A DNA stretch of 64,000 nt from IMG/VR virus record IMGVR_UViG_3300018876_000008, positions 96,001 through 160,000 of that record. The stretch is one strand, 5' to 3'. Origin of the DNA: a virus. Numbering within the stretch: position 1 is the stretch's first letter; each line of letters begins with the position of its first letter. The notes beneath the pieces were generated by a model. That model saw only the letters and a list, made by a program, of their open reading frames with translations. It was not told the DNA's origin and searched no databases. Position numbers and translations under genes: made by a program. This document shows, one piece after another, positions 5,446-61,588 of this stretch.

Positions 5446-5799
5446 ATGAATTGTTGGACAACAAAATTATTTAAACATTTTCAATCTTATTACGGTAAAG
5501 AAGTTAATAAGTGTCAAATAGCTTTTGAAAGTGGTGAATTTAAAAATATTATAGGTTCTATGTCAAGAACATTTATTATTGAACCTGAAGATTTTTTAAA
5601 TATCCTATTAGTTAAGACTGCACATTTTGGTAAGGAGTGTTTTAAAGATGACAAAATAGAAAGAATAAAACTTTATGATAAATGTGTTTTTATTGCCAAA
5701 AAATATAAAATAGATTTACCTAAAGATGTTGAAATGTTAATAGATGACAGAAAACAAAAAGTAGGATTGTTTAATAAACTAAAATCAATTTTTAAATAA
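5446..5799 (+). CDS. Hypothetical protein
   Basis: 117 aa ORF, TATTTAT at 5421. Confidence 0.7.
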   Translation: MNCWTTKLFKHFQSYYGKEVNKCQIAFESGEFKNIIGSMSRTFIIEPEDFLNILLVKTAHFGKECFKDDKIERIKLYDKCVFIAKKYKIDLPKDVEMLIDDRKQKVGLFNKLKSIFK

Positions 5800-6209
5800 T
5801 GAAAAAACAAGAAAAACAATACATCATTACAGAATCACAATTAAAAACGGTGATTAAAGACGTTATCAAAGAACAAGGTCTTTATGGGAACACTTCTGAC
5901 GTTGTTGATTACGATTTACCTGAATACTTATCCGATGTTATTATTTTAAGTAATTTAGAATCAATGAACGATGTTGAAAATGCGGTTAAAGAATTACATA
6001 AAAGACTTATGAGATTAGAAAAAGGTCTTGACACTGCAGGTTCACACCAAAAAGCTTACGGAACGGGTTTAAATTACGCTGAAAAAAATAAGAAAGATAA
6101 GAGGGATTTAGATAGGGATATCGAAGATAAAGCAGAGTCAGAAGAAAGAGATGAGGAACTAAGAAGAGAAATCGAAGCTCTTCAAAAGATGATTCAAAGT
6201 AATGACTAA
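5799..6209 (+). CDS. Hypothetical protein with ITE/IKE leader
   Basis: MKKQEKQYIITESQLKTVIKDVIKEQ N-terminus; coiled-coil-like tail. Confidence 0.75.
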   Translation: MKKQEKQYIITESQLKTVIKDVIKEQGLYGNTSDVVDYDLPEYLSDVIILSNLESMNDVENAVKELHKRLMRLEKGLDTAGSHQKAYGTGLNYAEKNKKDKRDLDRDIEDKAESEERDEELRREIEALQKMIQSND

Positions 6210-6831
6210 CAAAGAAGATTTTAAAATTGCTACCGAAAAATTATTAAATACTTTAGGTCGTGACATGGGTATTAAATACTATGGGTTTGATACTGAATAT
6301 GAAGTTGCTAGTATTGTCGATTATACTACCGGTAAAGAAATTACAGACTTTGATTTGAATGATTACGAGAATTATACTGTGATAGTTAAATCTAAAAAAC
6401 CACTTCCTGAAATATTTGATGTAAAAATTGAACCGTTATTTAGATATGGTAAGTATGCTCAACCTGAGGACTTAAAATTTAATTTAGAATATCTTACTCA
6501 ATATATAACACCAAATAGGTTAGGTATAGACCTTGTCGGACCTGAGTGGAAATATGGGGATAGTACATACGCTACTTCAAAATCTTTTGAAGAAAAATGG
6601 GGTAGAAGTTTAGAAAGGGACGCGAATGATTTTAAATTAAATCCCGATAATTGGATACTACTAAGTAATGATGTCGTTGTCGATAAATTAACTGGTGATA
6701 GTTTTCCTTTAATGTATAATGGGTTGATTGATAAAACTGAAGTATGGAACATAGCCAGAGTTGATGACGATGAGTGGTGGAATTCTTTAAATGATGAGGA
6801 TAAAGAAAAGTTAAATGATAACTTTAGTTAG
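6202..6831 (+). CDS. Hypothetical protein
   Basis: 209 aa ORF. Confidence 0.75.
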   Translation: MTNKEDFKIATEKLLNTLGRDMGIKYYGFDTEYEVASIVDYTTGKEITDFDLNDYENYTVIVKSKKPLPEIFDVKIEPLFRYGKYAQPEDLKFNLEYLTQYITPNRLGIDLVGPEWKYGDSTYATSKSFEEKWGRSLERDANDFKLNPDNWILLSNDVVVDKLTGDSFPLMYNGLIDKTEVWNIARVDDDEWWNSLNDEDKEKLNDNFS

Positions 6832-7277
6832 TGAAATTGAGAACTAGCGGGTCTACCAAACATATGGTCATTCCAAATAACTTGACCTTCATCACCAATT
6901 ATAGATAATTCAATAGCCACTTTAGGTTGATTCTTACCCTTAGGTAAAATAACATTTAGTATTTGTTCAGGTATTATAATATCCGCCAAATAAAATGGGT
7001 CAATACCGTATTCCCATATTTCATTTTCTATTTCATCATAACCTTCGATTTCACCATTTTTAATCTCTTTATCAAAATTAAGTGGGATGTCAGTGTATAA
7101 TGTTACCTTAAAAATATAGTGTTCGTATTTAGTAGTGAATTGACTATTAGAAGTTTTTTCTACAAATTCAAAATCGATTGCATTAATTTCAAATTTATCT
7201 TTATAGATTGACCTTAATGTAGGGGTATTTAAAAGTACTTTACCTAACTCAACTATTTTATCTATATCTAATTCCAT
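6828..7277 (-). CDS. Hypothetical protein
   Basis: 149 aa ORF, TATTTAT 4 nt before ATG. Confidence 0.75.
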   Translation of the reverse strand: MELDIDKIVELGKVLLNTPTLRSIYKDKFEINAIDFEFVEKTSNSQFTTKYEHYIFKVTLYTDIPLNFDKEIKNGEIEGYDEIENEIWEYGIDPFYLADIIIPEQILNVILPKGKNQPKVAIELSIIGDEGQVIWNDHMFGRPASSQFH

Positions 7278-7304
7278 AACTATAAATATAACTATTTATA
7301 TATA

Positions 7305-7961
7305 ATGAATAGAAGTGAAGAATTAAATAAAAGAAGGGAACAATTAAAAATTGACCACGAAGCTAAGACAAATTTAGAAATGGTTAGAAAGGTCTTAGAT
7401 GGGTTAGCTTTTAAAAATTTAGATGTTAATTATGATATTAAAATTAATAAAAAACATCTAGGTGCAACATTACCATATTACTATGATATTTGGGTGGATG
7501 TTGATGTTGATAAACATTACTCAAAATCCCCTAATTATGACCAACAGTATGTGGATGTGATTTATGACTTAGAACAAAAAATAGAAAATGCATTAAGATA
7601 TGTTAATCTACAAAATTATTTTGGGGGTGTCATATTTGACTACCAAAATGATGAATTAGTAGAATTTGAAATAAATCGATTAAATGACCGATTTAAAAAA
7701 TACATTCAATCACAATTCCCCAATGTAACTGATACAGATTATATTGGTGCTGATATATATTTTTATTTTTATAAAAGTGAAACTGATAATCCATACATGA
7801 GAGTAGAATTTATAGGTAACCCTCCATTCGCCCATGACCCTGAAACGGGTGAAGATTATGATGTATTTAGTTGTGACGAATTATATGAGATGATGAACAA
7901 TTTTTATTTCACTTCTCCACTATCTTCTGAATTCGAATACGAAAACTTTACTTGCTCCTAA
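7305..7961 (+). CDS. Hypothetical protein
   Basis: 218 aa ORF. Confidence 0.75.
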   Translation: MNRSEELNKRREQLKIDHEAKTNLEMVRKVLDGLAFKNLDVNYDIKINKKHLGATLPYYYDIWVDVDVDKHYSKSPNYDQQYVDVIYDLEQKIENALRYVNLQNYFGGVIFDYQNDELVEFEINRLNDRFKKYIQSQFPNVTDTDYIGADIYFYFYKSETDNPYMRVEFIGNPPFAHDPETGEDYDVFSCDELYEMMNNFYFTSPLSSEFEYENFTCS

Positions 7962-7991
7962 TATATTAAGTATTAGTTGATATTTATCTAT

Positions 7992-9071
7992 ATGAAACAG
8001 ATTAAACTTGTCAATGTATTAAAAGAATCGGTACAAGAAATGTACTCACAAGACAAAACATCATCGGGTGTGGGAGAACTTGTATTTGACAAAATTTGGT
8101 ACTCACAACAATATGGTAACTCGGTATACTTTTCAAATTTTGATAAATCCTTAGGTTCAGTTGCTAACAGTAGTAAATTAAAGTTAACTGATAAAAAAAC
8201 GGGTGAGGAATACATTTTTGATTCCGAAGATTTAAGAAGCACTAGAAACGGTAAAACATTATACATTCCTATGGGAGAGATTAAACAACTCTACCCAAGA
8301 TTACTTTCAGATTTATTAGATAAAGAACATAAAAATAAAAATGAAAACTTAAGTGTTAATACACTAAAAACAAAAGCCTCAGGAATACCTCAACTTATAT
8401 TAGATATTTTAAAAGAAGTGTACCCAAATAATTGGGGTAAGATTGACGAACCTGGATGTGAAACATTAGAAGGGGTCATCGATATCTTTCCCGCGATGGA
8501 AGGGGAAAGATGGTCTATACTAAATTTCTTCGATACTAATCCAGGTGTAATCAGATTATTATTAGAAAAATATCAGGACGAAAACGAGGATACTACATTA
8601 GAAGGATTCAAAGATTACCTAAGAGATAATAAGGATGAATTGTTCAGAGCTGACAGTCCATTCTTACAAACATTAGTAAAGAGAAACTTACAATCATTCG
8701 AAAGAGGGTGGAAGACCGAAGCAGAGGTCATAGACATCGTTAAAAGAGAGAATCCCGAACTAACTGATGAAGACTTTGTACAATACTGTTTAGGTTCAAT
8801 ACAAGACCGTGTAAGTGGTGTAGACTTTAAAGTTAAAGGAAAGGGTTACCAAACAAAACCAGCGTCTAAAATGGAAAGATTAAGAAACGGTGGTATAAGA
8901 GTACAAACTTATGGTATGAGAGATTGGTACAAAAGAAAACCTGAGATAGATTACATACTATATTCTAACGGTAAAAACATAGCCGTATTCCCTAACAGTA
9001 ACTATACAGTTTCGAAAGATGGTAAAACAGTAACACATTTCGGACCCATAGTTAAAGATTCATTTGTATAA
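7992..9071 (+). CDS. Protein with C-terminal PD-(D/E)xK nuclease-like domain
   Basis: GWKTEAEV...DRVSGVDFKV..GYQTKP pattern; ATG 7992 is 4 nt after TATTTAT; leader VLKESVQE. Confidence 0.5.
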   Translation: MKQIKLVNVLKESVQEMYSQDKTSSGVGELVFDKIWYSQQYGNSVYFSNFDKSLGSVANSSKLKLTDKKTGEEYIFDSEDLRSTRNGKTLYIPMGEIKQLYPRLLSDLLDKEHKNKNENLSVNTLKTKASGIPQLILDILKEVYPNNWGKIDEPGCETLEGVIDIFPAMEGERWSILNFFDTNPGVIRLLLEKYQDENEDTTLEGFKDYLRDNKDELFRADSPFLQTLVKRNLQSFERGWKTEAEVIDIVKRENPELTDEDFVQYCLGSIQDRVSGVDFKVKGKGYQTKPASKMERLRNGGIRVQTYGMRDWYKRKPEIDYILYSNGKNIAVFPNSNYTVSKDGKTVTHFGPIVKDSFV

Positions 9072-9113
9072 ATAAAATTATTATTCTATATTTGTCCTAT
9101 AACAAAGACAGAT

Positions 9114-9404
9114 ATGAGTAAATACCGAGTAGTTCGAGAAGATTATTATAATGAACGGGGTATCTCTTTTGATACATGTTTCTTTATTCAAAAACAAAAA
9201 TCATTTCTATTTTTTAAAAGATGGGTATATATCACACATAAGGATGTGGGAATTAAAACTCTAAATAAAGTACCTCTACATTTTAAAGGTGGACTACTCG
9301 AAGCTGAAGATTTTATTAAAGATGTTCTCAGTAAAGATATTATGATTAATGGTCATCATCTTTCTGTCCTAAAAGAGTATGACTCTAAGGGTGTCAGTAT
9401 ATAA
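9114..9404 (+). CDS. Hypothetical protein
   Basis: 96 aa ORF; TATATTTG at 9087-9094. Confidence 0.7.
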   Translation: MSKYRVVREDYYNERGISFDTCFFIQKQKSFLFFKRWVYITHKDVGIKTLNKVPLHFKGGLLEAEDFIKDVLSKDIMINGHHLSVLKEYDSKGVSI

Positions 9405-9479
9405 ATTTCTAAATTTTTTTGTGTCTACATTTCTCAGGCGGGGGGTCTTTAAAAAACTTTCTATTGTAAACCTCAAGGT

Positions 9480-10150
9480 TATAACTCCAAAGTTTCTTCA
9501 ATATATTATATAAGAGATTCATTTATATAGAGTCCATAAGATAATACCCACTCTTTACATATACACAGTAAAAGAAAGGGGTATTGTATGGATATACATA
9601 TAAAGGTTAAGAAAAGGGGGTATCTATATGAGTAAACATATAATCCCTAATAAAAGGGTGTGGAGTATAGTCTATTATATAATACACTACCTATAATTCT
9701 CCGTAAGGAGAAGAAAACCAAAGTGTAGTGTGAGTATAGACTCATATAAGAACACCCTCTTAATAGAAAATCACCCAAAATCACGGTTTCATCTACGAAA
9801 CACTCTACAAAACACCACTTAGAACACCATTAACCGATATATAGGGATGGTGCCCACTAGTATTTCTAAATAGGGGATTCCGACAGTAAGGGAGGGGGTT
9901 ATGACCATTAGTGAACATAATCACCTAAAAGTATAACTAAATGGGGATTTCACCGATGAAAACAAAGATTTTTTAGGTATCTGTCGGAATAAACTCTTTG
10001 GAAATATTATTAAATGGTGTAAAACTAATGATTTAATATACTTAATTAATCATTCATATGCCGGAATCGGTTCCTTCGGACCTCTTTCTCGACCTTCGGT
10101 CGGTCTTTTTTCTTCTAAAAAATTTTTTTTTAACGGGTCCTTCGTCCCGT
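9480..10150 (+). ncRNA. Putative large structured non-coding RNA (ends approximate)
   Basis: ORF-free region with many nested helices, e.g. ATTCCGACAG 9877-9886 / CTGTCGGAAT 9981-9990; TTCTCC-GTAA-GGAGAA; G-U pairs and a GNRA loop favour the + strand. Confidence 0.6.
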
Positions 10151-10210
10151 ATTATTTACACCTTTTTAAGAAAGTCTTTAAACATAAAGGGGTCACATAT
10201 ATTTATAGTT

Positions 10211-10732
10211 ATGGATTTTAATTTAATGAGTGACATGTTTAATAGAATAATGCCTAAATCATATGAAGATTTATCTAAGTATTCTAATATGGTTATGGAC
10301 CATACTTTATTAGATGGTAAGATAAAGAATATTGAATTAAAGTTTGAACCTTCTAAAGAACCTATTAAATATGGTGGATGGGAAATGAGACAACCCGGTA
10401 CTTTAGTTGTTAATGTATTTTTAAATACAGAAAATTTTTATGGAATATCTGATAGTATACCAGGGATAGAAAAGACATATGAATTAATGCCTGAACTTGA
10501 AGCCGACACTTTTTTAGAATTTAATGGATACGAATTTATAAAAAACATAATCTTCCCATATATTTCAAAAAAGTTTCTTAGATTATTAGGGTTGTCATTT
10601 AATGATATCCCTTATATAGAATTTAATCTTATTAATCACAAAGGTGATGTTTTAGTTAATTACGAAGAAGATTTGGATACGTATGTTAGACCTTATTTGT
10701 TTGACAAACGTTTGTGGAAAAAAATAGATTAA
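10211..10732 (+). CDS. Hypothetical protein
   Basis: Start moved to ATG 10211, 4 nt after TATTTAT. Confidence 0.75.
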   Translation: MDFNLMSDMFNRIMPKSYEDLSKYSNMVMDHTLLDGKIKNIELKFEPSKEPIKYGGWEMRQPGTLVVNVFLNTENFYGISDSIPGIEKTYELMPELEADTFLEFNGYEFIKNIIFPYISKKFLRLLGLSFNDIPYIEFNLINHKGDVLVNYEEDLDTYVRPYLFDKRLWKKID

Positions 10733-11610
10733 AGTTCGTACTTACCTTTATTGGTTTCTAACCAATTAACAAACATATCTAATACTTCAAAGTCAACGTC
10801 CTCAAGGTATTCACCATAATTTAAATTATTTAAACCATCATAAGATGGTAAAGTAACTTGAATTAATACTGATATATTTTCAGTGAAAATATTATCATAG
10901 ACCATACCTGAATCGTATAGCATATCATAAAATGATGAGAATATATCACCATCAACGTTAAAGTGTCTATCTCTTGATTCTTCAGTAACTAAATTAGATA
11001 TTAATTCAAAAATATAATCAGGAGAAACCTCTTCAGATATACCTTCAACACTCTCTATAAAATCGTTAATAGTTTTACGAGTAAACGGATTACCATTTAA
11101 TTTTAATAATTCAGGATTATTTATTATTGCATCAAAACGAATAAAATCTTCATCCTCTAATTCAAAATAATAATTTATTTTACTATTGTATCCTTCTAAT
11201 AGTAAACTCTTAACAGTAGAGTTTAAAGGGAGTGTAACTTTAAAGTATTTAGTTATGTTTTTATAGTAATCTTGAATATTATTTTTAAGTTTATCACTTA
11301 AAGTTAAATTATTCCCAATTTTTTTACCATTTAAAATCACATTTCTAATATAAAAAGTTTTATTTAGAACTTTAGGTATATTGAAATAGGGTGAGTCTTT
11401 CATAAAAAGAGAAACAAACATATCTGAAAACATGACTTTAGTTAATATTGGTACAGGAAAATCTCCTTCCACAAAGATATCGATTGGTCTCAAACCATTA
11501 TCAGGTTCTTTCTCTCCCAATTCATAAGTTATATCCATACCCATATACTTAGAACGAGTTTGGTTCATAAATTGAATTAACATGTCGAATTTGGTATCCA
11601 TTTCACTCAT
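10729..11610 (-). CDS. Hypothetical protein
   Basis: 293 aa ORF, TATTTAT 5 nt before ATG. Confidence 0.8.
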   Translation of the reverse strand: MSEMDTKFDMLIQFMNQTRSKYMGMDITYELGEKEPDNGLRPIDIFVEGDFPVPILTKVMFSDMFVSLFMKDSPYFNIPKVLNKTFYIRNVILNGKKIGNNLTLSDKLKNNIQDYYKNITKYFKVTLPLNSTVKSLLLEGYNSKINYYFELEDEDFIRFDAIINNPELLKLNGNPFTRKTINDFIESVEGISEEVSPDYIFELISNLVTEESRDRHFNVDGDIFSSFYDMLYDSGMVYDNIFTENISVLIQVTLPSYDGLNNLNYGEYLEDVDFEVLDMFVNWLETNKGKYEL

Positions 11611-24775: not shown

Positions 24776-24849
24776 AGCTTCCTGAGGGACTCGAACCCAC
24801 GACCTGCTGATTACAAATCAGCTGCTCTAGCCAACTGAGCTAAGGAAGC
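24776..24849 (-). tRNA. tRNA-Thr(TGT)
   Basis: Cloverleaf; anticodon loop TT-TGT-AA; no encoded CCA. Confidence 0.95.
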
Positions 24850-24852
24850 TTT

Positions 24853-25068
24853 TTATACTAATTTCCATTTTTTGGCAGATTTGACTATCGCCTCTTCATT
24901 TGTTAAATTTGGTTCCTCTCTAATTATATCCATTGCAGTATACATTATTTGACCCTTTAATCCTTTTTTACTTGCTAAGTCTAAAACGTCAACATAATAA
25001 TTAGGGTCAAATTTTGGTAGTGTACCGTCTTCTTCCATGTCTGCAATTTTACTAAGTATATTACCCAT
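24853..25068 (-). CDS. Hypothetical protein
   Basis: Start at MGNILSK (25068), downstream of TATATTTG. Confidence 0.65.
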   Translation of the reverse strand: MGNILSKIADMEEDGTLPKFDPNYYVDVLDLASKKGLKGQIMYTAMDIIREEPNLTNEEAIVKSAKKWKLV

Positions 25069-25199
25069 AAATGTTTTTTTTATTAGAGTACAAATATATG
25101 ATAAATGCATGAAAAAACCAACATTAAGTATAAAAAAGTTACCTAATGATGGTTTTTTACTGCATAATTAAAAAAGTGAATTCTTTAACGGTTTATTGA

Positions 25200-25535
25200 T
25201 TATCCGTTAATGACGGAATTATTGTTTTCATCTAATTGTCTATAAATTTCTGATACGTGTTCGCTCATAATATTTATAGTTTTATCAACTCTACTGTCAA
25301 TATGACTATAAAGTCTCTCATTCTCTTCTTTACAATTACGGTCAATGTTATTCCCAAAATCATAAAGTTCAGAACTTCTTTTCTCCAAATCCATATGGGT
25401 ATATTCCAATTCTTTTTGGAGTAGGTTTATTTCCTCTTTCAAGGACTTTGTTGTCAAATAATTCACAAACGTACCCACAACCATTAATAATACAATGACT
25501 GCACATACACCTAAAATAAATGATGTTATTTCCAT
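25200..25535 (-). CDS. TM plus coiled-coil protein
   Basis: N-terminal TM helix then heptad-like region. Confidence 0.75.
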   Translation of the reverse strand: MEITSFILGVCAVIVLLMVVGTFVNYLTTKSLKEEINLLQKELEYTHMDLEKRSSELYDFGNNIDRNCKEENERLYSHIDSRVDKTINIMSEHVSEIYRQLDENNNSVING

Positions 25536-25562
25536 AATTTCTAATTTTTAATTTAAATTTTA

Positions 25563-25574
25563 TGTCAAAGAACT
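25563..25574 (-). promoter_or_regulatory. boxA-like antitermination site
   Basis: AGTTCTTTGACA just downstream of tRNA-Tyr. Confidence 0.55.
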
Positions 25575-25582
25575 CACCTCGT

Positions 25583-25663
25583 TGGAGAGGAGGGACTCGA
25601 ACCCCCAAGGTCGAAAGACGGCAGATTTACAGTCTGCTGAGCCAACCAATTGCTCAACTCTCC
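25583..25663 (-). tRNA. tRNA-Tyr(GTA)
   Basis: GCAGA-CTGTAAA-TCTGC arm, long variable arm. Confidence 0.95.
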
Positions 25664-25669
25664 ATTTAA

Positions 25670-25792
25670 TTATTTAAATTTTGATTTAATGAACAGGTAG
25701 AGACTTTCGAAGATATGATACAACAATAATCCAACCATCCACGATACTAAACCAAATACTAATGATGCAATAATAAATCTAAATATTTCCAT
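25670..25792 (-). CDS. Small membrane peptide between tRNAs (40 aa)
   Basis: MEIFRFIIASLVFGLVSWMVGLLLY...; the longer ORF-track version runs into tRNA-Ser. Confidence 0.5.
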   Translation of the reverse strand: MEIFRFIIASLVFGLVSWMVGLLLYHIFESLYLFIKSKFK

Positions 25793-25824
25793 GATTTTAT
25801 TTTTTTTATAGTTTAAGAGTTTAG

Positions 25825-25909
25825 CGGAAGATGTAGGATTCGAACCTACGGTACATTGCTGTACGCTGGTTTTCAAGACCAGTGCATTCGACCACTCTGC
25901 CAATCTTCC
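25825..25909 (-). tRNA. tRNA-Ser(TGA)
   Basis: CTGGT-CTTGAAA-ACCAG arm, long variable arm, discriminator G. Confidence 0.95.
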
Positions 25910-25914
25910 GTCTG

Positions 25915-25988
25915 TGGACCTTGTAGGGCTCGAACCTACGACCTACGCATTATGAGTGCGGTGCTCTAACCAACTGAGCTAAAAGTCC
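25915..25988 (-). tRNA. tRNA with CAT anticodon, most likely tRNA-Ile2
   Basis: Loop CT-CAT-AA; paired G1-C72 and no GGG/CCC anticodon stem, so not initiator; Ile2 versus elongator Met is inferred. Confidence 0.85.
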
Positions 25989-26005
25989 GTTATTCAAAAA
26001 TATCT

Positions 26006-26086
26006 ACTCCACTTAGACTCCGTCTTTCGACTTGTAGGCGTGAGATTTGACGCCTCGTTGTTCGGTTGTTAAACCTATCTAAGAGC
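26006..26086 (-). ncRNA. Putative four-way-junction structured RNA in the tRNA array
   Basis: Closing helix CTTAGA/TCTAAG around GGTT-TAAC-AACC, AGGCGT-N8-ACGCCT and GTC-GAAA-GAC. Confidence 0.5.
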
Positions 26087-26203
26087 GGGGGAGTAGGGGA
26101 TTCGAACCCCCACCTCTTCTCAACAAGCCTAATCGTATCTCGTAACTAGTATGATATTTTCGGCCTTATAGTTGGAGCGTCGTACCACTTTGACTAACTC
26201 CCC
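26087..26203 (-). ncRNA. tRNA-like RNA with enlarged anticodon arm (117 nt)
   Basis: Acceptor GGGGAGT/ACTCCCC, D arm GTC-AAAGTGGTAC-GAC, T arm GGGGG-TTCGAAT-CCCCT; 66 nt between D and T arms. Confidence 0.75.
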
Positions 26204-26211
26204 GTATTTAG

Positions 26212-26285
26212 TACACCCATCAGGATTCGAACCTGAGACCGTCTGCTTAGAAGGCAGATGCTCTATCCAGCTGAGCTATGGGTGC
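26212..26285 (-). tRNA. tRNA-Arg(TCT)
   Basis: TCTGC-CTTCTAA-GCAGA arm. Confidence 0.95.
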
Positions 26286-26357
26286 ATGTGAAAAAGATAG
26301 GGTTCTTTTTTAAAGTTACATAGTTCCAACGCGTATTGTGTAACTCCCTATCTATAG

Positions 26358-26443
26358 TACCCGGAGACGGGCTCGAACCGTCACGGACCGTTCGGTCCAA
26401 CAGATTTTAAGTCTGTCGTGTCTACCAATTCCACCATCCGGGC
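26358..26443 (-). tRNA. tRNA-Leu(TAA)
   Basis: ACAGA-CTTAAAA-TCTGT arm, long variable arm. Confidence 0.95.
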
Positions 26444-26549
26444 ATGTGGTACTAATTTATAATTTCAAATAACGTTTTTGTCTTTCAACAATGTAAATGT
26501 ACGATACAAAAGATTAAGTAACAACTATTTTTTTAAAATAATTTAATTG

Positions 26550-26623
26550 TAGGGATGGAGGGACTTGAACCCCCGACCTTGACTATATAAGAGTCCTGCT
26601 CTAACCAACTGAGCTACATCCCC
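26550..26623 (-). tRNA. tRNA-Ile(TAT)
   Basis: GACT-CTTATAT-AGTC arm; anticodon TAT. Confidence 0.9.
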
Positions 26624-26676
26624 ATGTTGAAAACACCTATATTTTATGTAGAGGTGCAAAACTCGATTTGTATTGG

Positions 26677-26752
26677 TGGTGACCCCTCAGGGGTTCGAAC
26701 CCTGGACCCTCACATTAAAAGTGTGATGCTCTACCAGCTGAGCTAAGAGGTC
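26677..26752 (-). tRNA. tRNA-Lys(TTT)
   Basis: TCACA-CTTTTAA-TGTGA arm; encoded CCA. Confidence 0.95.
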
Positions 26753-54205: not shown

Positions 54206-54589
54206 TGGTGGAGGTGGCGGGATTCGAACCCGCGTCTTGCTCGTATTACCCTATAAAGGACTACACGTTTAGGACAATATTGATTCTCAATATTCCGAAA
54301 TATGTGATTGAATTTTTACATCCTCCATCACCAATAGATGTACGACTCGATTTAAGGTTCGGTCGTTTTTCCACCTTTGTAAGACTTCTGTTCCTAGGTT
54401 ATATGTCCCGACCCGTTGTGGTGTAACGTCTTACGCTACAGCCACTTCTTCAGTACGAACAAGTCCGATAGCCTGAAGTTTTGCGATAGTTTCGCCAGAT
54501 AAAAATTGCGTCCATAGATTTAAGTGATAGGATACATCTCACTACGTGCCCCGTATAACTAATTCCGCCAATCAATTCCATTCACCCCC
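54206..54589 (-). ncRNA. ssrA: tmRNA
   Basis: 5' GGGGGTG pairs with 3' CACCTCC-A-CCA including the G3-U Ala determinant; T arm GCGGG-TTCGAAT-CCCGC; tag frame 54431-54496 GETIAKLQAIGLVRTEEVAVA*. Confidence 0.93.
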
Positions 54590-59566: not shown

Positions 59567-61588
59567 TTAATTTCCCTTTTTAATGATTAATTCTTCATCG
59601 TTTTTCATTTCTACAGTAAAAGGTTTGTTTACTACAATAGTACCTCTAAGAACTTCTTCAGAAATTAAATCTTCAATTTTTTCCTGTATTGCTCTTTTAA
59701 TAGGTCTCGCCCCGTACTTTTCATCAAATCCAACTTTAGAAATAAATTCTTTAACTGAATCACTAAAATTAATATTATATTCCATTTCTTCTAAACGATT
59801 AGTTAATTTAAGTAATTCAATATCCACAATCTCAGAAACTTCTTTTTCTTTTAGAGGGTTAAATACAACAACCTCATCTACACGATTTAAGAATTCAGGG
59901 GTAAAATGATTCTTTAATTCTTTTTGAAGTAACGCCTTTTTCATCTCTTCATTATTTGACATTCTATTAGAAGTCTCAAAACCAACACCTGTACCAAAAT
60001 CTTGAAGTTTCTTAACCCCTAAATTAGATGTCATAATAATCAAACAGTTCTTAAAATTAATTTTACGACCAAAACTATCGGTTAAGTGTCCATCATCCAT
60101 CATTTGAAGTAATAATGAAAAAATATCTTTGTTAGCCTTCTCAATTTCATCGAACAAAACAACAGAATAAGGTTTGTTCTTAACCGCTTCAGTTAATTGA
60201 CCTCCTTGGTCGTGACCAACATATCCTGGAGGAGAACCAATTAATCTTGACATAGTGTACTTCTCTTGATATTCTGACATATCTACTCTAATTAAAGCGT
60301 CTTCAGCCCCAAATATCTCTTTTGCCAATTGTTTAGCTAAATGGGTTTTACCGATACCTGTAGAACCTAAGAATATAAAAGAACCGATAGGTCGATTAGG
60401 GTCTTTAATCCCAACTCTATTTCTACGAATAGCTTTAGAGATTTTTTCTACTGCAACTTTTTGACCGATTACAGAGCTATTAAGATTACCTTCTAAATTA
60501 AGTAGGGATTCTTTATCGTCAGAATTAAGTCTTGTAACAGGTATTTTAGTCATAGTTGAAACAACCTCAAATACCATATCTTCAGTAATTGGTTTACGTT
60601 TTTGGTCTTTAGATAACTCAAACTTTTCTTTTTCATTATCTAATTTTTTTAAGATTTTCTTCTCTTTATCACGTAATTCTGCTGCCTTTTCGTACTGCTG
60701 AGATTTTACTACTTCAATTTTTTCTTCTTTAATTTTAACCGCATCTTCCTTTAACTTTTCAATTATTTCAGGAAGTTTGACGTTGATTTGAGCGCGGGCA
60801 CCAACCTCATCCATAATATCGATAGCCTTATCAGGAAATTCACGGTCAGTAATATATCTATCAGCAAGTGTTACACATGCTTTAAGTGAATTTTCACTAT
60901 AAGTTACTTTATGATGTGATTCATAACGAGACTTTAAATTTTCAAGAATGATTAAGGTTTCTGATGGAGTGGCACCATCAACAACAACTTTTTGGAACCT
61001 ACGTTCAAGTGCACCATCTTTTTCTATGTTTTCACGGTATTCGTCAAGTGTTGTAGCTCCAATACATTGTAGTTCACCTCTTGCTAGTGCGGGTTTAAAA
61101 ATATTAGAAGCGTCTAATGAACCTGAAGAATTACCTGCACCTATAATTGTGTGTATCTCATCAATAAAGACGATAATATCAGGATTCTCATAAAGTTCAT
61201 CTAAAATAACTTTTAATCTTTCCTCAAATTGACCTCTATATTTTGTACCTGCAACGATTGATGTCATATCCAAAGAGACGATACGTTTATCACATAAATT
61301 TTGGGGACAATCACCTTCGAAGATTTTCATTGCCAATCCCTCTACAATTGCAGTTTTACCTGCACCTGGCTCACCTATAATAATTGGGTTATTCTTCTTT
61401 CTACGAGAAAGAATTTGAGCGATTCTATTAATTTCATTTTCACGACCAACAACAGGGTCAAGTTTACCTTGTTCCGCATGTCTAATAAGGTCACGAGAAA
61501 AATTGTCTAAAACAGGTGTTTTAGAGTTACTCATTTCTTTAGGAGCTCTTCCTCCATCTTTTTCATTAGGGTCTAATGGTTCTATCAT
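59567..61588 (-). CDS. clpC: ClpC-like AAA+ ATPase lacking the N-terminal Clp repeat domain
   Basis: Two Walker A motifs (GEPGAGKT, GSTGIGKT), UVR-type M domain (QQYEKAAELRD), VGF ClpP-docking loop. Confidence 0.9.
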   Translation of the reverse strand: MIEPLDPNEKDGGRAPKEMSNSKTPVLDNFSRDLIRHAEQGKLDPVVGRENEINRIAQILSRRKKNNPIIIGEPGAGKTAIVEGLAMKIFEGDCPQNLCDKRIVSLDMTSIVAGTKYRGQFEERLKVILDELYENPDIIVFIDEIHTIIGAGNSSGSLDASNIFKPALARGELQCIGATTLDEYRENIEKDGALERRFQKVVVDGATPSETLIILENLKSRYESHHKVTYSENSLKACVTLADRYITDREFPDKAIDIMDEVGARAQINVKLPEIIEKLKEDAVKIKEEKIEVVKSQQYEKAAELRDKEKKILKKLDNEKEKFELSKDQKRKPITEDMVFEVVSTMTKIPVTRLNSDDKESLLNLEGNLNSSVIGQKVAVEKISKAIRRNRVGIKDPNRPIGSFIFLGSTGIGKTHLAKQLAKEIFGAEDALIRVDMSEYQEKYTMSRLIGSPPGYVGHDQGGQLTEAVKNKPYSVVLFDEIEKANKDIFSLLLQMMDDGHLTDSFGRKINFKNCLIIMTSNLGVKKLQDFGTGVGFETSNRMSNNEEMKKALLQKELKNHFTPEFLNRVDEVVVFNPLKEKEVSEIVDIELLKLTNRLEEMEYNINFSDSVKEFISKVGFDEKYGARPIKRAIQEKIEDLISEEVLRGTIVVNKPFTVEMKNDEELIIKKGN

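Follow-up and report, generated by a model that had tools for sequence, protein, structure and literature searches.

What is encoded by a ~750 base stretch of phage DNA that contains no gene? The locus in question lies at 9412-10155 of the window, a 64,000-nucleotide stretch of DNA from an uncultured marine giant phage with an A+T-rich genome (bases 96001-160000 of a 169 kb IMG/VR record, estimated to be 56% complete), and is located between an open reading frame (ORF) at 9114-9404 and another at 10211-10732, both on the plus strand. An initial annotation, made from the letters alone, had called it the largest gap without a gene, described it as full of helices, and proposed that it folds into one multi-domain plus-strand RNA, possibly of a new class. 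The first of these points is correct, as the region is the longest stretch of the window without an ORF of at least 80 aa, the tRNA array and the tmRNA apart. Large ornate RNAs of phages and bacteria are represented by the Rfam families GOLLD and ROOL, to which the locus had been likened. Here, we report that the locus is truly non-coding and slowly evolving, but that it is a patchwork of four modules and not one large ornate RNA. The reading that we favor, with a probability of roughly one half, is that the locus yields a non-coding plus-strand transcript in which double-stranded RNA elements are under selection, part of its sequence having been taken over from a dead gene.

Close relatives were collected through the downstream protein, by which three contigs of IMG/VR and 25 loci of marine metagenomes were identified, and more were added through a conserved 149-aa protein. 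Exact-pattern scans of IMG/VR returned the same three contigs and chance matches only, and blastn with the region found no match in GenBank phages. Among 185,579 bacterial and archaeal genomes, one exact-pattern scan yielded nothing and a second a single 25-mer; this 25-mer, in Undibacterium terreum, has no similarity around it and was taken as chance. Homologs of the locus are thus confined, across GenBank, IMG/VR and the bacterial and archaeal scans, to one narrow group of marine phages. Examination of the whole window with Rfam 15 at gathering score detected only one tmRNA, which is full-length (54206-54589, minus strand, 77.7 bits), and eight tRNAs that form an array (24776-26752, minus strand), all outside the region. 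Within 9300-10300, matches with E up to 10 had a best E of 4.4 and all were far under gathering scores, in line with the earlier statement that the locus could not be matched to a known class. None of the eight neighboring proteins has a Pfam or PHROG family match.

In total, ~30 homologous copies were gathered from marine metagenomes, including 24 distinct copies of the region in the close set. The window copy is 87-89% identical to the other close copies, which are 92-100% identical among themselves. The region is better conserved than its flanks, with a divergence of 11.3% over 744 sites compared to 19-64% at fourfold sites of six neighboring genes, and it is still 87-89% identical where the best-conserved neighboring protein falls to 73% identity. 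Codon periodicity is absent (149 variable columns, p 0.61), and the alignment of region copies contains 12 indel sites of 1-2 nt. Given the lack of periodicity, the short indels and the low divergence relative to fourfold sites, the region is both non-coding and constrained, and its description as ORF-free was well founded. A protein-coding gene in the standard or an alternative code was rejected on the basis of no open frame, no periodicity and the 1-2 nt indels. Two mini-ORFs located behind G-rich motifs at 9588 and 9628 were also rejected, as none of the changes in them is synonymous and an inserted G shifts the frame in one copy.

More distant relatives were sought among contigs found through homologs of a 364-aa protein encoded two genes upstream (7977-9071, plus strand), whose homologs in marine viromes are graded from 99% down to 36% identity. 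A language-model search hints at a TaqI/MjaI-type restriction-endonuclease-like family for this protein (score 0.91), which we treat as a lead only. Parts of the region that we refer to below as modules C and D are found in contigs L046, L047, L050/L051 and L055 at 65-81% identity, and invariant blocks of 10-25 nt persist among the ORF-less lineages. The region is missing from L049, L053, L058 and L062-L064, and likewise from three nearly complete giant phage records. In L018 (2829-3000) and L023, the downstream 173-aa gene is kept (72% identity), the whole region is absent and the upstream genes differ. These differences mark the locus as variable within the phage group. In addition, 414 extra nt separate the upstream operon from the non-coding region in the main-clade contig L045 and include a called ORF of 123 aa (L045:3159-3530).

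Module A (9412-9497, plus strand) is a conserved segment right after the upstream operon. It is found in all lineages that have any part of the element, at 76-89% identity, even where the remainder differs. Its predicted stem of 7 bp (AAACUUU 9454-9460 / AAAGUUU 9489-9495) surrounds a hairpin (AACC 9469-9472 / GGUU 9477-9480), and a 15-nt insertion in L050 and L055, in which module A lies between convergent genes, is placed exactly in the loop of this inner hairpin. Module B (9498-9752, plus strand) is a lineage-specific non-coding insert that is restricted to the phage of the window, the main clade and L046. It includes most of a long hairpin described below as well as three loose direct repeats of ~39 nt (9556-9665, 74-76% identity). 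In five other contigs, module B is replaced by a real gene on the minus strand, which encodes 110-131 aa and whose copies are 33-63% identical (L047:5732-6064, L048:5727-6068, L050:4838-5233, L052:4650-4991 and L055:4512-4889); this protein family has no Pfam match. We considered module B as a relic of the replacing gene and rejected this, as there is no detectable homology between them.

Module C (9753-10060, plus strand) is ORF-less, and its left edge is marked in all lineages by the motif AGAC[CT]C[AC]T[AT]T. Its homolog in sister phages is the 5' half of a lipoprotein gene of 187 aa. An nhmmer profile of module C matches inside L048:6228-6791 (E 1.9e-7) and L052:5152-5715 (E 5.6e-6), and the match is colinear, at the same genomic position, with the same terminators located directly after the stop codon of the gene. 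By several signatures the 187-aa ORF of L048 and L052 is a real gene: the protein has a lipoprotein signal peptide and the lipobox LISC, the 41 nt differences between the two contigs are distributed 12/4/25 over codon positions 1/2/3, six further homologs with 62-94% identity are each 187 aa long, and structure prediction returns a beta-rich domain (pTM 0.63). The lipoprotein belongs to no Pfam family, and its model has no PDB fold match at E 0.001 or better. The nucleotide blocks shared by module C and the gene encode the protein's invariant motifs EFPIEDSDS, DGP, GWGCDT and TTVGIFAWEINYL. All ORF-less lineages lack the same parts, namely the signal-peptide region and ~240 nt of the C-terminal half, and this form with the same losses is common to at least six lineages. 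In the frame of module C that is homologous to the lipoprotein gene, TAA, TAG and TGA are all present, and there are stops in every frame. The phage's own record, 56% complete, contains neither a paralog of the region nor an intact copy of the lipoprotein gene. At the level of homology, then, module C and the terminators are shown to descend from the same locus as the intact lipoprotein gene of sister phages. We infer that the gene is the ancestral state and that a single loss of coding capacity was followed by divergence; the reverse, the birth of the gene from non-coding sequence, seems far less probable given that the lipoprotein is conserved and folded.

With its homology to an intact gene and its disabling lesions, module C has two of the attributes of a pseudogene. 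However, divergence is not that of a neutral sequence, at 0.11 for the whole region compared to 0.19-0.64 at fourfold sites among close copies and, in alignable columns of the deep ORF-less lineages, 19-35% (0.19-0.35) compared to 36-62% (0.36-0.62) at fourfold sites of the 364-aa gene. This bears directly on whether the locus is mostly debris, consisting of remnants of lost genes and ordinary terminators, with conservation that reflects recent shared ancestry or recombination and not function. That module C is gene-homologous, truncated and full of stops is what debris would look like, and its conserved nucleotide blocks coincide with the conserved protein motifs of the coding homolog. Neighboring segments also differ widely in age (fourfold divergence of 0.19 and 0.64 in two adjacent genes), the whole region is absent from L018 and L023, module B is lineage-specific, and the folding statistics are weak beyond two stems. 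Nevertheless, we regard debris as quite unlikely: the same truncated ORF-less form is carried by at least six lineages that are now 65-81% identical and yet share invariant blocks of 10-25 nt, divergence is 2.5 to 5 times below that of fourfold sites in both close and distant comparisons, and two stem arms within module C remain complementary in all lineages.

These arms form a long-range stem on the plus strand. The 5' arm (9861-9886) is made up of 9861-9870 and 9877-9886 with a 6-nt internal loop between them, and the 3' arm (9981-10006) of 9981-9990 and 9997-10006, giving 20 bp interrupted by a 6-by-6 internal loop, with an outer helix (9861-9870/9997-10006) and an inner helix (9877-9886/9981-9990). 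All 26 distinct copies, coding or not, retain the stem: 98.7% of cells are paired, compared to at most 54% when the partners are shifted against each other. In L048 and L052, the outer helix is composed of AAUUUCCCA/UGGGAAAUU in place of UAUUUCUAAA/UUUGGAAAUA, so that two pairs are changed on both sides and one pair on one side. The covariation score of the stem is reached by 0 of 500 shuffles, but both doubly changed pairs come from this single lineage and depend on a 1-nt realignment. Further changes include A-U to G-U in L042, L046 and L047, as well as U-G to U-A in L047. The U-G pair of most lineages is possible on the plus strand only, and the G-U/A-U exchanges fit that strand alone. In an alignment of eight lineages, conserved stacks of at least 6 bp hold 54 pairs compared to 0.1 in column shuffles, a lenient null that breaks conserved blocks. 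When three more distant giant phage records (233-297 kb) were searched with a covariance model of the stem, the matches of 15-19 bits lacked the inner helix and no homolog was found.

In the coding homolog, the 5' arm encodes the invariant motif EFPIEDSDS and the 3' arm encodes TTVGIFAWEI. Over the ~70 nt of the two arms, L048 and L052 have 0 differences, where ~3 third-position changes would be expected. Tentatively, we suggest that the lipoprotein gene already carried the RNA stem in frame, within its EFPIEDSDS and TTVGIFAWEI codons, and that coding was lost and the stem, blocks and terminators were kept in several lineages; this specific history may be correct but is held with less than even confidence. 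The inner 10-bp helix is invariant in every lineage with no compensatory change, and an element that never varies fits sequence-specific recognition as well as it fits pairing. The conserved parts, inverted repeats and sequence blocks, could conceivably act as DNA to which proteins of the phage or host bind, be it as operators or as a site of replication, partition or recombination, and the invariance of both inner arms is the first point in favor of such a site. In the outer helix, however, the U-G, G-U and A-U exchanges spoil a DNA repeat yet keep the RNA pairs, and the stem is kept within a coding gene, far from any promoter.

The second substantial element is a long irregular hairpin of 120 nt (9647-9766, plus strand) with ~30 bp in four segments, capped by the GUAA tetraloop 9703-9706. 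At pair 9661/9752 the window has U-A where the main clade has G-C, a compensatory change, and pair 9690/9725 is C-G, U-G (L017) or U-A (L046). The bulged base at 9724 varies freely among copies. The tetraloop is GUAA or, in L025 and L044, GCAA, and this retention of a GNRA loop is again not anticipated of a DNA site. Nonetheless, the hairpin folds to a similar degree on both strands (z -6.07 plus and -5.64 minus), as do several other parts, a point in favor of a protein-bound DNA element.

Covariation among homologs had been put forward as a check on the RNA reading, and the outcome was divided, with two compensatory pairs in each of the two stems and none in the consensus fold of diverged copies. 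At close-clade depth covariation power is small, as an unbiased scan gave 58 'covarying' stacks on the minus strand and 51 on the plus strand; the fold of the close-clade alignment has equal consensus energy on both strands. An alignment-wide search returned 1 covarying pair, and there too the two strands gave similar results. The consensus fold of nine diverged module C sequences contains 0 doubly compensated pairs and has a positive, that is unfavorable, covariation term. In the same fold, 12 pairs show one-sided changes that keep pairing and 25 pairs show breaks, which is no excess over chance.

Every helix named in the initial annotation could be located base by base, at 9543-9549/9579-9585, 9554-9558/9568-9572, 9655-9661/9752-9758, 9669-9675/9736-9742, 9684-9690/9725-9731, 9697-9702/GUAA/9707-9712, 9786-9790/9797-9801, 9825-9830/9847-9852, 9877-9886/9981-9990, 9897-9903/9916-9922, 9923-9931/9970-9978 and 9948-9952/9957-9961. 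Several of these are at odds with the relatives: in 23 of 24 copies the upper part of GGUUAUG/CAUAAUC places A opposite A, G or C, five copies break AAUACCC/GGGUAUU, and in 21 of 24 an A-A mismatch interrupts AGUCUAU/AUAGACU. Two small plus-strand hairpins, GUUUC/GAAAC (9786-9801) and CACCAU/AUGGUG (9825-9852), have conserved stems and variable loops with zero compensatory changes, and are neither supported nor refuted. When 9480-10150 is folded whole, z is -4.53 on the plus strand (0 of 20 shuffles) and -1.89 on the minus strand. The 3' part, 9767-10060, also folds better than dinucleotide shuffles on the plus strand (z -3.17, 0 of 100 shuffles; minus -0.97), whereas 9415-9646 does not (z -0.43 plus and -1.37 minus). 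Hence the description of the region as full of helices is appropriate for the long hairpin and the long-range stem of the 3' part but not for the 5' third. Module C from five other lineages folds weakly, with z of -0.35 to -1.9 on the plus strand and +0.3 to -2.2 on the minus strand.

The whole-region plus-strand z of -4.5 is one of the points in favor of the original proposal, a single large ornate RNA of a new class that spans ~9430-10110 as one multi-domain molecule. A second is that the close-clade fold pairs modules A and C, for example at 9477-9488/9895-9906, a helix in which pairing survives each of the five one-sided changes. With two A-U pairs swapped to U-A, L050 seems to retain it, as judged by eye and not by statistics. 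However, the modules are found apart from one another, the partner of the A-C helix is missing in L046 and L047, a minus-strand gene lies in the middle in L047, L050 and L055, and a coding gene takes the place of module C in L048 and L052. Moreover, the 5' third folds no better than chance, and there is no homolog outside one narrow phage group. Given this modular and mixed origin, with ~300 nt that are homologous to a gene, a molecule resembling GOLLD or ROOL is very unlikely, and this part of the initial annotation is not borne out. The locus does share with GOLLD and ROOL a length of several hundred nt, the lack of an ORF, a location in phage DNA and stems capped by GNRA loops. Unlike them, it is modular and partly gene-derived, has no covariance-model match up to E 10, has a very narrow distribution and no strong covariation, and is not beside tRNA genes. 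In this respect, the locus opens no new RNA class of the GOLLD/ROOL type.

Module D (10061-10155, plus strand) consists of tandem terminator-like hairpins at 10069-10082, 10089-10103, which is followed by a U run, and 10133-10150. Three terminator-like sites were found, all on the plus strand, compared to 0.6 expected from shuffles, and the G+C-rich hairpin followed by a U run on the plus strand that characterizes an intrinsic (Rho-independent) terminator is present at 10069-10150. No lineage departs from the sequence of the middle terminator, CGACCUUCGGUCG followed by a T run, which in L048 and L052 lies directly after the lipoprotein stop codon. Along with at least two stems whose compensatory changes fit a plus-strand RNA, the terminators at the end of the region agree with the plus-strand orientation originally proposed. 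Neither a sigma-70-like plus-strand promoter nor a TAnnTTTG motif was found in the region, and the motifs ACATATAW and AAAGGGGK are not enriched genome-wide.

A replication origin had been named, beside a packaging site, as the alternative should the RNA reading fail. The three ~39-nt direct repeats are consistent with this and with a DNA site in general, but DnaA-type boxes are absent from 9412-10155 and are found elsewhere. A second ORF-poor region, L039:3990-5640 (G000:C1 ~89990-91640), lies ~4.3 kb before the window and contains repeated AAAGTTATCAACA-like (DnaA-box-like) motifs and G/C tracts, with the boxes clustered at L039:4490-5330. It is probably a replication origin or control region, and is a likelier origin than 9412-10155. 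The 16-nt hairpin GATTTCACCGATGAAA (9946-9961) recurs inverted in this second region, a further point in favor of a DNA site, and nothing else is shared between the two. With three conserved plus-strand terminators at its end, no DnaA-type box and a likelier origin elsewhere, the locus is in our view unlikely to act primarily as DNA.

We therefore return to the favored reading of a plus-strand non-coding transcript. The transcription unit of the lipoprotein would have been kept after its coding capacity was lost, and selection would maintain double-stranded RNA elements, first among them the 20-bp interrupted stem that was already inside the coding version. To this, the lineage of the window's phage would have added the 120-nt GNRA-capped hairpin at 9647-9766, and the putative transcript would end at the three intrinsic terminators. 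It would most likely act as a stable, structured transcript, made as a non-coding RNA in its own right or as a structured 3' tail of the upstream operon. The long imperfect duplexes may serve as processing, stability or protein-binding sites, for which a double-strand site of the RNase III type is the obvious candidate.

RNase III processing hairpins and structured 3' ends are features of phage transcripts, such as the R sites of the T7 early region. Like the elements described here, RNase III sites are imperfect duplexes of ~20-30 bp with internal loops, located at the ends of transcription units and followed by terminators. In contrast, one of the duplexes in the locus is long-range, closing ~95 nt, and is not a simple hairpin, and the sequence of its stem is invariant, which RNase III sites do not need. 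Non-coding RNAs derived from genes or pseudogenes and dual-function mRNAs are also known, examples being SgrS and RNAIII. The resemblance here is that a coding locus and its ORF-less homolog share sequence, terminators and an RNA stem, with the stem in frame in the coding version, whereas the direction proposed here is from gene to non-coding locus. Finally, a catalogue of candidate structured RNAs predicted from viral intergenic regions has been published (PMC10690425). The locus resembles these candidates in being a conserved, ORF-free, folding-prone intergenic region of an uncultured virus, and differs from them in being composite.

If the RNA reading is correct, versions with an intact gene and ORF-less versions exist side by side in related phages and share an RNA stem, which would be a rare natural series for the passage of a coding transcript into a non-coding RNA. 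If that transition is real, it would be a documented one in which sister phages still carry the dual-purpose mRNA. A functional transcript would also add a non-coding element to marine giant phages whose neighboring genes almost all lack a known family. More generally, the locus illustrates that a long, conserved, ORF-free and helix-rich stretch can prove to be a mosaic assembled from relics of genes, insertions and terminators, and such stretches call for caution.

Two observations concern the surroundings of the locus. Comparison of window 5773-10776 with L002 indicates that adjacent genes diverge very unequally, with fourfold divergence of 0.19 in the 149-aa gene and 0.64 in the next gene, a mosaic pattern that suggests recombination among these phages. 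Elsewhere in the window, a 673-aa protein (59567-61588, minus strand) matches the PHROG annotation 'ATP-dependent protease' (E 1.3e-240), and a peptidase gene adjoins it.
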